IMG/VR virus record: IMGVR_UViG_2541047860_000002
DNA length: 64,000 nt
Strand: one strand, 5' to 3'
Source: a virus
Taxonomy: Duplodnaviria; Heunggongvirae; Uroviricota; Caudoviricetes
The notes below the pieces were generated by a model. The model saw only the letters and a list, made by a program, of their open reading frames with translations. It did not search any database and was not told the DNA's origin. This document shows, piece after piece, positions 3,639 through 44,520 of the stretch; position 1 is the first letter of the stretch, and each line of letters starts with the position of its first letter. The translations under genes and the position numbers were made by a program.

Positions 3639-3863
3639 ATGGCGGCCTGCTTTGGCGTTATGACTCCCTACCGCGCTTCGGCTGAAAGTTAATCGTCAAA
3701 AGAACCTTCAACGGGAGCCGTTAGCGCGATGGATTATGTGCAGTTTGTGATTTCCAAAATAGTGTCAACCACTTTTTGTGGATTTTATTTTTTGACAGAA
3801 ATTTGGCCTAAATCATGTTGATTTGGCTGATTATTTTTATAACATAAAAGTCATTTTGATTGC

Positions 3864-5643: not shown

Positions 5644-6585
5644 TTAACTAACAATCCAGTCCGTAGCAACAACATCCTCTGGAGCTAAATCAATCGCATG
5701 GATTTTCCCATCCCGGATAGTGCGCCAGTGCTTTCGTGATCCACCTTCGGGCCATACCCATACACCTTCAGGCCAAGATGCTCGACGGCATACGATTGCA
5801 TACCCTGTTTTAATCCTCTCTCTGGCGGTATGCAACGACAGGTTTGCCTTTGGACTTTCAGGCACAGGATGGTGGATTGCCTGAAACATCCCCATCTTTG
5901 GATGATACCAGCGTTTATTGCGTGGTTCTGCCTCCGACATCACCTGCTTAAAGGCTTTCCGGAAGGGGGCCAGAGCCACAATGGAGCGTCGCGCAAGCAA
6001 GCCATCGGGGGTCAAAAACTCATGTGTATCGGTGGGAATCCGGTAAGCGTTAACCAGGTTGCGGCATTTGGCTTCAGTCAGGCCGCATTTCGCCGCCAGC
6101 TGGCGGTAGCCAATGTAACCTTCCGGCATATTGCCTTTCTTGATTTGCTCGAGTGTTTCAGCAACCATCGATACTTGTGCTGATACCTCGGCTACCTGGG
6201 CATTTACGGCGTTGATCCGGCGTTCATGCTCAAGATGCATTTGCGCCATTTCAGCCAGGATTTCGGCTTTTGATTTTAACTGTACCCGGGCATTCTCCAG
6301 TTCGCGCCAGCGGTCCACTAGCCGGGCGGTAAATTCGGGAGAGAGCTGCGCGACGACAACAATGCTGTCTCGTTTTCCTTGCTCGCCTTCGAAGACATAG
6401 ACCGGATCTTTGACAACCTTCCCTAAGTTATTGATTCTTTCGACGAACTCATTTTGAGTTTCTCGGATGACACCGCTAGCCATCATATTGCGAATGGTAC
6501 GTAAAACATTGCCGTGACGACTACCAACTAACTCTGCAATATCTAGGCTACTCATTGTCGCTTTTTGAGAGATGGACAGATTCAT
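5644..6585 (-). CDS. Rha-family phage regulatory protein (antirepressor-like) fused to a C-terminal DUF2829-like module
   Basis: N-terminal Rha-like region (VFEGEQGKRDSIVVVAQLSPEF...); near-identical paralog at 43223-43930; C-terminal CRRASW...ATDWIVS. Confidence 0.7.
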   Translation of the reverse strand: MNLSISQKATMSSLDIAELVGSRHGNVLRTIRNMMASGVIRETQNEFVERINNLGKVVKDPVYVFEGEQGKRDSIVVVAQLSPEFTARLVDRWRELENARVQLKSKAEILAEMAQMHLEHERRINAVNAQVAEVSAQVSMVAETLEQIKKGNMPEGYIGYRQLAAKCGLTEAKCRNLVNAYRIPTDTHEFLTPDGLLARRSIVALAPFRKAFKQVMSEAEPRNKRWYHPKMGMFQAIHHPVPESPKANLSLHTARERIKTGYAIVCRRASWPEGVWVWPEGGSRKHWRTIRDGKIHAIDLAPEDVVATDWIVS

Positions 6586-6800
6586 CAGTGCACCTCCACG
6601 CAGTTCATCGGCAGATTCCAGTAATTGAGGATCTCCATCGCATCAAGAGTGAAGCGAGCAGCAAAAATGCAGGGTTCTTCGGGAAGGTATGAGCGCGCCT
6701 CTGATTCGGTAGCAGCCATGACGCAGATATACAGGTGCTTTTGGCAGGAATAGAAACGCCAGATAAATTCAGAATGAGTTGGGGTAGGGATAGTAGCCAT
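6585..6800 (-). CDS. Small protein preceding the Rha gene (Icd position of an immI-like module); paralog at 43930-44154
   Basis: 71-aa ORF; shared EFIWRF(Y/H)S.QKH core with the 74-aa paralog; stop overlaps Rha start. Confidence 0.45.
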   Translation of the reverse strand: MATIPTPTHSEFIWRFYSCQKHLYICVMAATESEARSYLPEEPCIFAARFTLDAMEILNYWNLPMNCVEVH

Positions 6801-6862
6801 ATTGGCAGCCTCCTTTTGCTAATTTAAGGAGCTACCGCGTGAGGTCTCAATCTCAATGGCGG

Positions 6863-6938
6863 TAGCACTGGCTGGGTTGAGACTACCGGCGCAAAAGGGA
6901 ACCGGCCTGCCTTTCGGCAGCCCAGCCAGCACTACCAT
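6863..6938 (-). ncRNA. Candidate structured RNA element (16-bp stem, ~44-nt loop) upstream of the Rha module
   Basis: Arms 6863-6878 and 6923-6938 pair perfectly (two G-U) only when the minus strand is transcribed; plus strand gives two C-A mismatches. Confidence 0.3.
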
Positions 6939-6983
6939 TGATCTTGGAGCTATACGCTACGTATGGCTGTGCGATGGCATGAC

Positions 6984-7007
6984 ACAAAAAAAGACGCTTT
7001 CGGCGTC
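6984..7007 (-). terminator. Rho-independent terminator (GACGC-cgaaa-GCGTC + U7) on minus strand
   Basis: Hairpin 6993-7007 followed on the minus strand by a T run (6984-6992). Confidence 0.5.
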
Positions 7008-7112
7008 TGTGTCGCCTTTTGCATTATCCGGGGTCTCAATCCCGGCACCCGTTTTTCTAAGGTGCCGTAGAAATATACCCCACGATAATGCCAGGGCGCA
7101 ACAGTCAGTATT

Positions 7113-7280
7113 TTATGCTTTGGCGGATTTTTTCCGGGCTTGCTTGCAGGCGTAGGCCATTGCTTTAGCTTTCACTTCATCCAGCTTCCCGGTGATCACT
7201 TCTTTTCCGAGAGTGACAAACCAGTCATAGCAACCGCCAGTAATGTTCTTGATTTGAAAGTTGAGGTAGCGAACAGTCAT
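7113..7280 (-). CDS. Small hypothetical protein (55 aa, MTVRYLNFQIKNITGGCYDWF...)
   Basis: ATG 7280 preceded by GGGGGTG; followed by the terminator at 6984-7007; below ORF-track cutoff. Confidence 0.3.
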   Translation of the reverse strand: MTVRYLNFQIKNITGGCYDWFVTLGKEVITGKLDEVKAKAMAYACKQARKKSAKA

Positions 7281-7601
7281 TTTGACACCCCCAGCGCGAG
7301 TAAAGAATGCAGATTATCGCGTGAGTGGTGGACGACGAGTGATGGGAAAAGACTGTAGTTGTTCATAGTGTAGTGACTCCTTGCTTTCGGAGCCGCCATC
7401 GACTGTTCCACGGTCTGGTGGCGGCGCAATAAAGGCTGGAACACCGTGAGTCAACGGGGGCTTTTCAGCCACCTATATTGCACCGCCATAGGTATGGCGG
7501 CGGCAATAATACGAAAAACTAAACAGTTTGTCTCAAAAAGTTGACCGGTGTGCCAATCGGTAGTGAATGTACATCGGAGAAATTTTCAATTCAACTTAAA
7601 A

Positions 7602-7620
7602 TGTTAGAAAACTAATTTAT
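7602..7620 (+). promoter_or_regulatory. Operator-like motif TGTTAGAAAACTAATTTAT (copy a)
   Basis: Member of a motif family repeated at least 11 times; lies upstream of the first Rha module. Confidence 0.45.
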
Positions 7621-11411: not shown

Positions 11412-11450
11412 ATTTGTTAGAACATTGATTATAGTTTTCTAACATATTAT
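11412..11450. promoter_or_regulatory. Operator pair TTGTTAGAAC-N14-TTTTCTAACA (copy c)
   Basis: Inverted TGTTAGA/TCTAACA halves inside the early operon, upstream of ORF 11487. Confidence 0.5.
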
Positions 11451-19457: not shown

Positions 19458-20135
19458 TCACTCCACTACAAACCAGTCACATGCCAGTAAGTCGCCTACA
19501 GAAGGAACCCACGGAACAACTACACCTTGTGCATTTTTTAAGGCGAAATAAGCACCATACGGAACGAGGTCGCCGGGGAAATATCCCTTAATGGCTTCCA
19601 TTCGTGCCGGGTACTGTCCTTCAGGAACCAGCCAGCAGAATTGGTTTTCGCCGTTCCACCCGCGTCGAGCAACTTTCTTGCCATCCTTCAGCCACATCAG
19701 CGCGTCAGAAAAGTCGGCTGCTTCAAGGTCGATTTCTTCTTGCTGGGTGGTGATGCCACCAGCAGAAATAGTTACGCTCCCGGTAAGATTAATCATCACG
19801 CCGTTGTCATCCGTAATGATGACCGTGGTTCCATTTTTGGAGGCGTCGTTAACCAGGCCATAGCGTTCCTCAAATGGTTTCTCCGGGGCATAGAACAGAT
19901 AACCGTTTTCATAAACGATCAGATACCCGCCAGTTTTTGGTCGGTGTTTTTGTAAAAACATTGCGTCAACACAAACTGTTGCCCCTTTTGGTTCAACGAG
20001 TTCGATGCAGCCCCAAAGTGGGGCATCAGTTACTCCGAAAATAACAACATTTTTGATTTTCGATGCACTAACGTTTTTGTGAGCTTTGTATTTGGGAAGG
20101 AACTTAAAAAGCTCTTTCGTTGCCATGTTATTCAT
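19458..20135 (-). CDS. Protein with C-terminal DUF2829-like (Tad2-like) domain
   Basis: C-terminus ...ALMWLKDGKKVARRGWNGENQF...PWVPSVGDLLACDWFVVE. Confidence 0.5.
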   Translation of the reverse strand: MNNMATKELFKFLPKYKAHKNVSASKIKNVVIFGVTDAPLWGCIELVEPKGATVCVDAMFLQKHRPKTGGYLIVYENGYLFYAPEKPFEERYGLVNDASKNGTTVIITDDNGVMINLTGSVTISAGGITTQQEEIDLEAADFSDALMWLKDGKKVARRGWNGENQFCWLVPEGQYPARMEAIKGYFPGDLVPYGAYFALKNAQGVVVPWVPSVGDLLACDWFVVE

Positions 20136-42993: not shown

Positions 42994-43025
42994 AAAAAGC
43001 CCCGGCCAGGCCGGGGCATCACGCT

Positions 43026-43226
43026 TCAAGTCACGATCCAATCATTACCGACAATATCAGCCGTCGATAAATCAACTTCCCGGATCTGGAGTCCATTAAT
43101 ACAAAACCATCCGGTAGTAGAGTAATTATCAGGCCAGGCCCATACACCAACACTCCATGCTTTACGGCGGCACACTTCAGCCTGTCCTTCCCTGATTTTT
43201 TTTACCGCCTGCATGATGTCCATCAC
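43026..43226 (-). CDS. Stand-alone DUF2829-like small protein
   Basis: 66 aa; ...VCRRKAWSVGVWAWP...DLSTADIVGNDWIVT; corresponds to the fused C-terminus of ORF 5644-6585. Confidence 0.45.
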   Translation of the reverse strand: MMDIMQAVKKIREGQAEVCRRKAWSVGVWAWPDNYSTTGWFCINGLQIREVDLSTADIVGNDWIVT

Positions 43227-43930
43227 TCACCTCCCCAACCGATCACCTGGAATTGCCCCATTTTTGGGTGATACCAACGTTTTCCTCGGTGTTCAGCCTC
43301 CGACATCATCCGGTTAAAAGCATTCATGAAGGGAGATAAGGCGACGATGGAACGACGCGACAATACCCCCTCTGGAGTTAAAAACTCATGTGTATCTGTG
43401 GGAATCCGGTAAGCGTTGACAAGGTTGCGGCATTTGGCTTCGGTCAGGCCGCATTTCGCCGCCAGCTGGCGGTAGCCAATGTAACCTTCCGGCATGTTGC
43501 CCTTCTTGATTTGCTCGACGGTTTCTACCACCTGGCTAACCTTTGACTCAACAACATGAAGCCGCTTTTGCTGCTGAACTGCATTTGCAGCCATTGCGGC
43601 GATCATCTCTATTTCGGTCAACGGCTGGCGTACTTGTTCTTCCAGTTCGCGCCAGCGGTCCACCAGCCGGGCGGTGAATTCCGGAGAGAGCTGCGCAACG
43701 ACAATGATACTGTCACGCTTGCCTTGTTCGCCTTCGAAGACGTAGTGTGAATTTTTAACTTTAAATCCTAAGTTATTGATATTTTCGGAAACCTCCATTG
43801 GAGGAAGTGGAATAACACCTGATTTACTCAAGCGTTCAATAGTGCGTTTAACGTTATCCGGGCGACTTCCCACCAGCTCCGCGATCTCAATGCTGGTCAT
43901 TGATGGCTTTTCAAGAATGCAGATTTCCAT
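43223..43930 (-). CDS. Rha-family phage regulatory protein (antirepressor-like), copy 2
   Basis: Paralog of 5644-6585 over ~230 aa. Confidence 0.7.
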   Translation of the reverse strand: MEICILEKPSMTSIEIAELVGSRPDNVKRTIERLSKSGVIPLPPMEVSENINNLGFKVKNSHYVFEGEQGKRDSIIVVAQLSPEFTARLVDRWRELEEQVRQPLTEIEMIAAMAANAVQQQKRLHVVESKVSQVVETVEQIKKGNMPEGYIGYRQLAAKCGLTEAKCRNLVNAYRIPTDTHEFLTPEGVLSRRSIVALSPFMNAFNRMMSEAEHRGKRWYHPKMGQFQVIGWGGE

Positions 43931-44154
43931 CAGTGTGCCTCCGCAATTCCGGGATTGGTAATATTGCGATACCAGGGATTAGTGTTTGGTTGTGGGGAAG
44001 TAGAGAAACGACCAGTAAGAACACCATACTGATCAGGGATCAGAGAACGGGCTTCTTTTTCGGTTGCGGCAATTGCGAAGTGATCGCAGTGTTTTTGCAG
44101 GGAGTGGAAACGCCAGATGAATTCTGGACGTGAGCAAGGATTGGCATTAACCAT
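43930..44154 (-). CDS. Small protein preceding Rha copy 2 (paralog of 6585-6800)
   Basis: 74-aa ORF; EFIWRFHSLQKH core. Confidence 0.45.
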   Translation of the reverse strand: MVNANPCSRPEFIWRFHSLQKHCDHFAIAATEKEARSLIPDQYGVLTGRFSTSPQPNTNPWYRNITNPGIAEAH

Positions 44155-44485
44155 AGTTACGGCCTCACTAACAGGTTTAACAACCTGCTACCCGCTGTCA
44201 AACAGGTGGCAGGACGTGACAGGGTTGACAGACTGGCGTTAGTGAAACCAGCAGGCCGAAGCCTCCCCATCACGCCCCACCATAATTCGGGCGTAACGCG
44301 GTTTACGGACACAAAAATACCGCAATATCGGAAATCTGCGGTTGTCCGCACTAACATTCAGGCTGTCAAACCTGGTCGCAGAATTTGCTACGACGGCATG
44401 AATATAAGCCTGAAAACATGGAAGATCAACTAAAAAATTTCAGCAATGGATGACTTCAGTCGATGATGCAGATCATACATTCCGA

Positions 44486-44520
44486 TTTAGAAACAGCAAA
44501 TTAATTTTCTAACACAAATC
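44486..44520. promoter_or_regulatory. Operator pair TTTAGAAA-N11-TTTTCTAACACA (copy i) upstream of Rha module 2
   Basis: Inverted TTAGAAA/TTTCTAA halves between the repL-like gene and the Rha module. Confidence 0.45.

Follow-up and report, generated by a model that had tools for sequence, protein, structure and literature searches.

A 64,000-nucleotide window of viral DNA (IMG/VR record IMGVR_UViG_2541047860_000002; Caudoviricetes) carries two modules on its minus strand in which a small upstream gene precedes the gene for a Rha-like protein. A further small DUF2829-like module is fused in frame to the Rha-like protein in copy 1 (positions 5644-6800), whereas it forms a separate open reading frame (ORF) in copy 2 (43026-44154). 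The locus raises the question of what these two modules are, how they are controlled, and whether the fused and detached part belongs functionally to the protein beside it. The explanation favoured here, with somewhat better than even confidence in it as a whole, is that the window represents a D6-like, P1-related plasmid prophage with two paralogous minus-strand operons of the immI type, in which C4-type antisense RNAs would gate the synthesis of Rha/Roi-type regulators and of a small Tad2-like module.

Two immI-type operons and their predicted antisense RNA gates

The genes of both modules were recovered in the ORF listing on the minus strand, as they had been described. Copy 1 comprises an icd-like gene for a protein of 71 amino acids (6585-6800, minus strand; NCBIfam phage_ICD_like) and a gene for a Rha/Roi-type protein of 313 amino acids (5644-6585, minus strand; Pfam pRha, phrog_63), which stands in the slot of ant in P1 and of which codons 249-313 (5647-5841, minus strand; phrog_7385 on residues 252-312) form the fused Tad2-like part. 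Copy 2 comprises an icd-like gene for 74 amino acids (43930-44154, minus strand; NCBIfam phage_ICD_like, phrog_1426), a Rha/Roi-type ant-slot gene for 235 amino acids (43223-43930, minus strand; phrog_63 at 2e-47, Pfam pRha and HTH_24) and the separate Tad2/DUF2829-like ORF of 65 amino acids (43026-43223, minus strand; phrog_7385 at 1.7e-49, D6 orf17). The small upstream protein is indeed shared, the two versions being 45% identical (E 1e-15), and both belong to the Icd-like family (NCBIfam NF033153), which they match at 50.3 and 40 bits, respectively, against a cut-off of 25. The icd-like and ant-slot genes overlap in a TGATG stop/start sequence in both copies, as do the ant-slot gene and the 65-amino-acid ORF in copy 2; the latter ORF has a GGAGG Shine-Dalgarno sequence of its own and starts at ATG (43223) or at an upstream GTG (43226; 66 amino acids). 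An intrinsic terminator with eight GC pairs and a T run closes copy 2 (42999-43017, minus strand; terminator scan), and copy 1 ends in a comparable hairpin whose T tail is weak.

Both loci are 98.0-98.8% identical at the nucleotide level to Escherichia phage D6, the record of which annotates orf17 (hypothetical), orf18 (anti-repressor, 'similar to HK97 Roi') and orf19 (Icd-like) at the locus of copy 2 and orf82 (anti-repressor, 'similar to Rha/Roi/KilA') and orf83 (Icd-like) at that of copy 1. The duplication of icd and the anti-repressor gene is existing annotated knowledge, and the preliminary description overstated the case in calling two antirepressor modules in one phage unusual: besides D6, a second c4/icd region was noted in a D6-like plasmid in 2019 (PMC6799933), extra icd-ant1/2 homologs were reported for pSvP1 (PMC6906374), and phage JL22 provides a further case. 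The RNA specificities and the Tad2-like fusion and fission were not found described in a literature search that had the D6 genome paper outside its scope.

The probable main regulator of both modules, overlooked in the preliminary description, is a C4 antisense RNA. The Rfam gathering scores (GA) are 45 bits for C4 (RF01695), 50 bits for isrK (RF01394) and 46.7 bits for c4-a1b1. The C4 RNA of copy 1 (6855-6942, minus strand) scores 76 bits, with a fold of -49.1 kcal/mol, and that of copy 2 (44202-44287, minus strand) 68.8 bits, and the canonical C4 shape of a closing stem and two hairpins is predicted for both. The leader of copy 1 is of the isrK type (6987-7065, minus strand; Rfam isrK 59.1 bits), with hairpins equivalent to a1/b1 and an intrinsic terminator (7008-6992, minus strand; terminator scan), while the leader of copy 2 has a1/b1 decoy target hairpins (44355-44407, minus strand; Rfam c4-a1b1 54.4 bits). 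As an isrK RNA the copy 2 leader reaches 43.5 bits, under the GA, and the c4-a1b1 model describes it better. A 99-amino-acid ORF on the plus strand (6856-7155; D6 orf84) lies exactly antisense to the C4 and isrK elements of copy 1 and is probably no real gene.

RNAduplex energies on the loop segments were too noisy for specificity, and exact-complement runs were used instead. The C4 loops of each copy have perfect complements of 7-8 nucleotides in their own module, both upstream and at the icd Shine-Dalgarno sequence. The targets in copy 2 are TTGACAG and GTTAGTG(A/C), with upstream sites at 44369 and 44355 and downstream sites at 44201 and 44172. The downstream pair consists of a2 (TTGACAG, 44201-44195, minus strand), recognised by complementarity, and b2 (GTTAGTGA, 44172-44165, minus strand), which overlaps the Shine-Dalgarno sequence of icd-2, and these are the a2 and b2 annotated in P1. 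In copy 1 the targets are TTGAGAC and GCAAAAGG, upstream at 7039 and 7022 and downstream at 6850 and 6819; the downstream TTGAGAC (6850-6844, minus strand) was likewise found by complementarity, and the downstream GCAAAAGG (6819-6812, minus strand) overlaps the AAGGAGG Shine-Dalgarno sequence of icd-1. The loops and targets of the copy 1 C4, which is of the isrK type, differ from those of copy 2, and complementarity between the C4 of one module and the targets of the other extends to 6 nucleotides at most. As the loops and targets of the two C4 RNAs form distinct sets, the gates appear orthogonal and should act independently. The C4 RNA of copy 2 is identical to that of P1 over the 77 nucleotides annotated as c4 in P1, and all four of its a/b target sites likewise match the P1 annotation exactly; on the strength of these matches copy 2 should cross-react with the C4 of P1, while copy 1 should not. 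The similarity of copy 2 to P1 (93% of nucleotides, window positions 44043-44414) begins in the leader and breaks off within icd-2. Icd-2 resembles P1 in its N-terminal half only, and a mosaic joint therefore lies within the gene.

Each module had been described as lying downstream of an operator copy. This holds at both modules for a D6-type motif, ATTAATTTTCTAACA, and fails for the P1 C1-operator consensus, which does not occur near either module and has its sole match elsewhere in the window, at chance level. The ATTAATTTTCTAACA 15-mer has 14 matches in the window with up to three mismatches, against 2.6 expected, and none of 100 shuffled sequences reached 14. Motif enrichment identified an exact copy (44500-44514, plus strand) as a candidate C1-type operator for copy 2, and a motif search found ATTAGTTTTCTAACA with one mismatch (7602-7616, minus strand) as a candidate upstream of the copy 1 region. 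Copies of the ATTAATTTTCTAACA type also precede the c1, ref, repL and lpa homologs, whose P1 counterparts are all C1-controlled, suggesting that the motif may be the D6-type C1 operator and its occurrences a candidate operator set. Sites of this type include those at 3830, 8254, 11415/11430, 21517, 22927, 27360, 33554, 44500 and 45705, and the motif forms an inverted pair at 11415-11444. Abutting the copy 2 motif is a promoter-like TTGCTG-N16-TATGAT (44499-44472, minus strand; read by eye), and a promoter scan located a promoter-like TTGATC-17-TATATT (44429-44401, minus strand) before the a1/b1 element of copy 2; a promoter-like TTGCGC-18-TATATT, read by eye, precedes isrK in copy 1.

The elements of each operon follow in the order of candidate C1 operator and promoter or promoters, decoy leader (a1/b1 or isrK), C4, second target pair, icd-like gene, Rha/Roi-type gene and Tad2-like module. 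By analogy with immI of P1, processed C4 RNA in the lysogen would pair with the sites at the icd ribosome-binding site and block icd translation, and through translational coupling and polarity this block would also silence the Rha/Roi-type regulator and the Tad2-like module. Opening of the gate would cause the whole chain of products to be made together, with the Tad2-like module of copy 2 translated as a third cistron from its own Shine-Dalgarno sequence and coupled by TGATG.

The order of elements is shared with the immI region of P1 and P7 (P51a/b-Op51, a1 b1, c4, a2 b2, icd, ant1/ant2), as are an Icd-like first cistron with a stop/start overlap to the next gene, an operator-adjacent promoter with a second promoter, and repL as a neighbour. 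In contrast to P1, ant is replaced by a non-homologous Rha/Roi-type gene, the product of which has no KilAC/ANT domain, a Tad2-like module is appended, repL lies upstream rather than downstream, and there are two operons and a third C4-like RNA rather than one operon. Copy 1 also resembles isrK-orf45-anrP of the Salmonella prophage Gifsy-1 (PMC4825925), in which an isrK-family leader with its own terminator is followed by a processed C4/CI-type RNA region, a small coupled ORF and a gene in the antirepressor slot. The small ORF is Icd-like here, whereas orf45 is described as poorly conserved in amino acid sequence, and the IsrK RNA of Gifsy-1 acts as an activator in trans (PMC4825925).

A third, weaker C4-like RNA lies further upstream of copy 1 (7414-7493, minus strand), with 40.2 bits in the Rfam C4 model, below the GA, and a canonical fold of -36.2 kcal/mol. 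It has complementary sites of its own, TGGAACA (7410) and GAGTCA (7379), the second of which lies over the Shine-Dalgarno sequence of a tiny ORF (7277-7366, minus strand; ORF listing) with its ATG at 7366. This RNA stands between the operator-like motif and the isrK leader, from which it is separated by the tiny ORF and an ORF of 55 amino acids (7113-7280, minus strand; phrog_7786), and the copy 1 region may thus hold two riboregulators in tandem. An extra perfect TTGAGAC, the target of the copy 1 C4, is found upstream of the third C4-like RNA (7530-7536, minus strand), inside a promoter-like GAGACA-17-TATTAT; it may be due to chance or may be a cross-link between tandem gates.

Rha/Roi-type proteins in the ant slot

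The Rha-like N-terminal domain proposed for both ant-slot proteins stands for copy 1, which scores 36.9 bits against Pfam Phage_pRha (PF09669; gathering threshold 29.9 bits), while copy 2, at 26.4 bits, falls under the cut-off, yet is 66% identical to copy 1. The 235-amino-acid protein of copy 2 additionally matches Pfam HTH_24 at 30.3 bits. PHROG 63 ('anti-repressor Ant') takes in both proteins, and its profile covers the 313-amino-acid protein over its full length. The Roi proteins of lambdoid and Shiga toxin (Stx) phages are 46-57% identical to the N-terminal 140 amino acids, and the nearest annotated relatives are Roi 'DNA-binding protein' genes. Some of the Stx-phage proteins match residues 1-237 at 56-57% identity, at least 80% query cover is reached in four phage records, and the fused C-terminal module is covered by none of the Roi/Rha proteins (HK97, HK022 and Stx phages; PF09669) listed. 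Among the lambdoid phages listed, the roi genes are often located beside NinF in the nin region, and none was seen beside icd. By BLASTP, P1 Ant1 is not homologous to the two window proteins (E 0.14 and 0.38), and the KilAC/ANT domain (PF03374), which is present in P1 Ant1 and KilA, was not detected in them.

Promotion of lytic development, by C1 antirepression or by DNA-binding regulation, is the most likely role of the Rha/Roi-type proteins, and the antirepressor role, in which the regulator would inactivate C1, is read from their position only. The positional argument draws on the punaviruses JL22 and RCS47, in which a second immI-like locus has an isrK/C4 leader 94-95% identical to that of copy 1 over 328 nucleotides; in JL22 a small ORF and an ant-slot gene come after it. 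The JL22 locus adjoins c1/pacB, whereas copy 1 adjoins ref, and the same leader type (95% of nucleotides) there drives a protein with ORF6N and KilAC domains in place of a Rha/Roi-type one. The JL22 locus (1232-2564 in the extracted sequence L006) is situated between pacB and c1, and its protein, annotated as 'Roi', is really of the ORF6N+KilAC type. Since the JL22 leader drives an ORF6N+KilAC Ant, the ant slot behind the C4/icd gate appears to be exchangeable, which gives positional support to a lysis-promoting role and is no proof of antirepressor activity.

A serious rival to the antirepressor reading, though a rather unlikely one, is that these proteins are sequence-specific DNA-binding regulators which, like the lambdoid Roi, switch lytic genes directly and are silenced by the gate in the lysogen. 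The closest annotated relatives, the Roi 'DNA-binding protein' genes of HK97-like and Stx phages, argue for this, as does the want of a KilAC/ANT domain in the window proteins. The AlphaFold2 (AF2) model of the 313-amino-acid protein can be read in the same direction. It has a mean predicted local distance difference test score (pLDDT) of 64.5 and comprises a winged helix-turn-helix at residues 10-81, a long helix at 83-149 and a second unit of strand-helix-helix-strand-strand-helix at 157-219, and it would thereby contain two winged-helix units. The second of these is seen in predicted secondary structure only, as an internal-repeat BLASTP between the N- and C-terminal winged helix-turn-helix-like units was negative. 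The fold matches of the model in the Protein Data Bank (PDB) are of the generic winged-helix kind only (MarR, TFIIE and DnaD-N-type), and at E values of 0.02 or higher they are weak, a point against the rival. Direct DNA binding as the sole role is further opposed by the exact ant slot that the proteins occupy behind c4-icd, by the KilAC antirepressor-type protein which the same leader drives in JL22, and by the PHROG label 'anti-repressor Ant', which is an annotation and not an assay.

The fused and split Tad2-like module

The described contrast between a fused and a split module was borne out, residues 249-313 of the 313-amino-acid protein aligning end to end with the 65-amino-acid ORF (40% identity, E 2e-17). 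The joint in copy 1 is a short in-frame linker (HHPVPESPKAN..., about a dozen residues), that in copy 2 consists of a stop codon, a Shine-Dalgarno sequence and a start codon, and the two junctions are not homologous. A one-nucleotide insertion in the TGA of ...GAG TGA TGG... would formally fuse the frames of copy 2, and a single-base sequencing or assembly error in either copy had been named as the explanation that would remove the contrast. This is refuted by the population data, which leave it practically no probability: D6, sequenced independently, shows both the split and the fusion, and each architecture is conserved across about 100 or more independent assemblies. Copy 2 is covered over at least 80% of its length at 91-99% identity in 110 plasmid records, and in nearly all of those listed the Rha gene has a separately annotated hypothetical protein as its neighbour. 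The 65-amino-acid protein belongs to a cluster of 165 member sequences with a PHROG family of its own (phrog_7385). Copy 1 is at least 80% covered in 92 plasmids, and the 313-amino-acid fused protein occurs on hundreds of contigs, with an identical sequence on 72. The assembly of pSa1423-90k (88.5% identity) is ridden with frameshifts and was not used.

The label 'DUF2829-like' is weakly supported by direct comparison, as the 65-amino-acid ORF (15.1 bits, E 0.034) and the fused module (12.4 bits, E 0.25) both score under the gathering threshold of 25 bits for Pfam Tad2-like (PF11195, formerly DUF2829). The family is a very narrow one: seven relatives of the module were all that an exhaustive profile search retrieved from 1.84 billion representatives, so that no deep alignment was possible, and a word-indexed homolog search with the 65-amino-acid ORF yielded only three near-identical proteins. 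Two of the relatives nonetheless link the module to PF11195, P0127 with 37.4 bits, above the cut-off, and P0124 with 23.9 bits. A profile of five module sequences gave six matches to PDB entries, all sub-threshold, and five of the six are DUF2829 proteins (AcrIIA7/'Inhibitor of Type II CRISPR-Cas', SptTad2, ModTad2 and Tad2). In a Foldseek search with the AF2 model of the 65-amino-acid protein, which has a helix-beta topology, all 17 of the 17 best PDB matches were Tad2.

A bona fide C-terminal Tad2-like/DUF2829 domain is encoded elsewhere in the window, in a protein of 225 amino acids (19458-20135, minus strand; 80 bits), and with this clear domain the phage carries three DUF2829-type modules; orf114 of D6 (146 amino acids) is a shorter homolog of this protein. 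The module and the 225-amino-acid protein have the signature RR..W....W...D....DW in common (R19, R20, W23, W28, D56, D61 and W62), while their direct comparison with hhalign is weak, the probability being 1.3% with four sequences and 15% with five. With the Tad2/DUF2829 anti-Thoeris sponges and AcrIIA7 the module shares its size class, the predicted helix and beta topology, the terminal motifs ..G..v.RR.W.. and ..D...DW.v, and its best structural and profile matches in the PDB. It differs from them in its sub-threshold Pfam scores, its shorter length, the narrowness of its family and the fusion of one copy to a transcription-factor-like protein. The comparisons are all sub-threshold and point in one direction, and the module is probably a minimal protein of the DUF2829 fold, an assignment held with good confidence.

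The most likely role of the Tad2-like module is an autonomous one, as an early-made anti-defence protein or binder of a small ligand or immune signal, in which case the fusion in copy 1 would be a consequence of adjacency and coupling. Activity as a sponge for glycocyclic ADP-ribose (gcADPR) or a related immune signal is unproven. Autonomous function is favoured because the standalone relatives P0124 and P0125 stand away from Rha genes, in another accessory locus of other plasmid prophages of about 90 kb. Bona fide Tad2 proteins, furthermore, act alone as signal sponges (bioRxiv 10.1101/2023.05.01.538930).

Both of these points tell against an alternative considered unlikely, namely that the module is an integral partner of the Rha/Roi-type protein, as an oligomerisation or ligand-sensing domain, such that copy 2 forms a two-subunit complex and copy 1 a single chain, with a ligand such as an immune or stress nucleotide tuning induction. 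A fusion/fission pair is a Rosetta-stone signal for such partnership, the ant-slot gene and the 65-amino-acid ORF of copy 2 are tightly coupled via the TGATG overlap, both architectures are kept in about 100 plasmids, and the PHROG 63 profile runs over the fused module. Given a family of seven among 1.84 billion, though, the Rosetta-stone signal comes from essentially one lineage, and in the full-length AF2 model the module has a pLDDT below 50, with no confident contact to the rest of the protein readable. A more specific version, considered very unlikely, would wire the module as a ligand sensor to the lysis-lysogeny switch, with a host immune or stress nucleotide (gcADPR-like or cyclic) controlling the Rha/Roi-type regulator. 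If this were true, the prophage would induce or escape when abortive-infection signalling fires, with the sensor acting in cis where it is fused and as a subunit of its own where it is split, and the two orthogonal C4 gates would provide two independent inputs.

Divergence of the two copies and implications for P1-like plasmid prophages

The Rha-like proteins had been described as near-identical over about 230 amino acids. They are in fact 66% identical over 237 (E 9e-111), and near-identity is confined to residues 61-98 and 143-197 (numbered on the copy 1 protein), the remainder ranging from 27 to 72%. The nucleotide alignment that had been proposed to locate the fusion point finds similarity in only two stretches, of 272 nucleotides (84%) and 109 nucleotides (88%). 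Compared by segment, residues 1-60 are 51.7% identical, with 0.459 nonsynonymous (dN) and 1.563 synonymous (dS) substitutions per site, and residues 61-98 are 89.5% identical (dN 0.073, dS 0.754). The coiled region at residues 99-142 is 27.0% identical (dN 0.839), with a dS that was not computable, residues 143-197 are 94.5% identical (dN 0.032, dS 0.454) and residues 198-237 are 72.5% identical (dN 0.18, dS 1.868). The 65 codons of the Tad2-like module are 40% identical in amino acids (dN 0.616, dS 3.355) and 51% in nucleotides. Synonymous sites are thus saturated (dS > 1) in residues 1-60 and 198-237 and in the Tad2-like module, and residues 61-98 and 143-197 combine a lower dS with strong purifying selection.

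The shared gene order, the similar terminator hairpins and the two DNA patches of 84-88% could be taken as signs of a recent intragenomic duplication that is now diverging. This is highly improbable: the saturated dS argues against recent duplication, the Tad2-like parts have diverged to the extent given above, and the two leaders fall into different Rfam types and have their matches, at about 93-95% identity, in separate loci of other P1-like phages. Other D6-like plasmids have alleles of the copy 1 locus in which a copy-2-like coiled segment is combined with a copy-1-type fused C-terminus (L011 3001-3906; P0109, P0115 and P0120), and such chimeric alleles indicate recombination between the paralogous loci. 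Together with the low-dS patches they point to patchy recombination, and on the sequence comparisons the two copies, at 66-68% amino acid identity, appear as old paralogs, or as separately acquired alleles, that have recombined in patches.

Several points weigh against the explanation of the window as a pair of immI-type antirepressor operons with a Tad2-like module. The proteins in the ant slot are not homologous to Ant1/Ant2 of P1. Roi and Rha, as characterised, are DNA-binding growth modulators related to integration host factor (IHF), and are not known to be proven antirepressors. AnrP of Gifsy-1 was considered as support for an antirepressor role and rejected, its N-terminal sequence being of a type different from Rha/Roi. 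The operator motif is unlike the P1 consensus and is oriented oppositely at the two modules. Every direct score of the small module as Tad2-like, from Pfam and from Foldseek, is below significance: the Foldseek matches are weak (E 0.19-0.6, template modelling score 0.45-0.53, root-mean-square deviation about 9 Å), and they were obtained with a model of low pLDDT (72.7). The module is without the central insert of about 17-20 amino acids present in the Tad2-like domain of the 225-amino-acid protein, so that ligand binding may have been lost. Finally, copy 1 may be missing from some D6-like plasmids. In the Salmonella plasmid NZ_CP028198.1 of this type, where copy 2 is found at 98.8% identity, the copy 1 query matches through the copy 2 locus only; copy 1 seems absent there and would therefore be dispensable.

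The layout is a variant of a known system, and what is new in it is modest, comprising the apparently orthogonal C4 gates, the exchange of cassettes in the ant slot and the fusion and fission of the Tad2-like module. The immI region of P1 is the textbook case of antisense-RNA control of an antirepressor, and the element analysed here indicates that this switch behaves as a cassette, in which the C4/icd gate stays the same and the protein behind it is exchanged for one of another type (KilAC, ORF6N-KilAC or Rha/Roi). A single genome can accommodate two apparently orthogonal gates, one of them with an RNA specificity identical to that of P1, from which cross-immunity of D6-like with P1 plasmids is predicted. 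With its fused and split forms the module provides a natural test of whether a DUF2829 protein works together with a transcription regulator or is the product of an anti-defence gene controlled by the immunity system and expressed only once the phage turns lytic. Plasmid prophages are common in clinical E. coli and Salmonella, and either outcome would inform on when they express their anti-defence genes.

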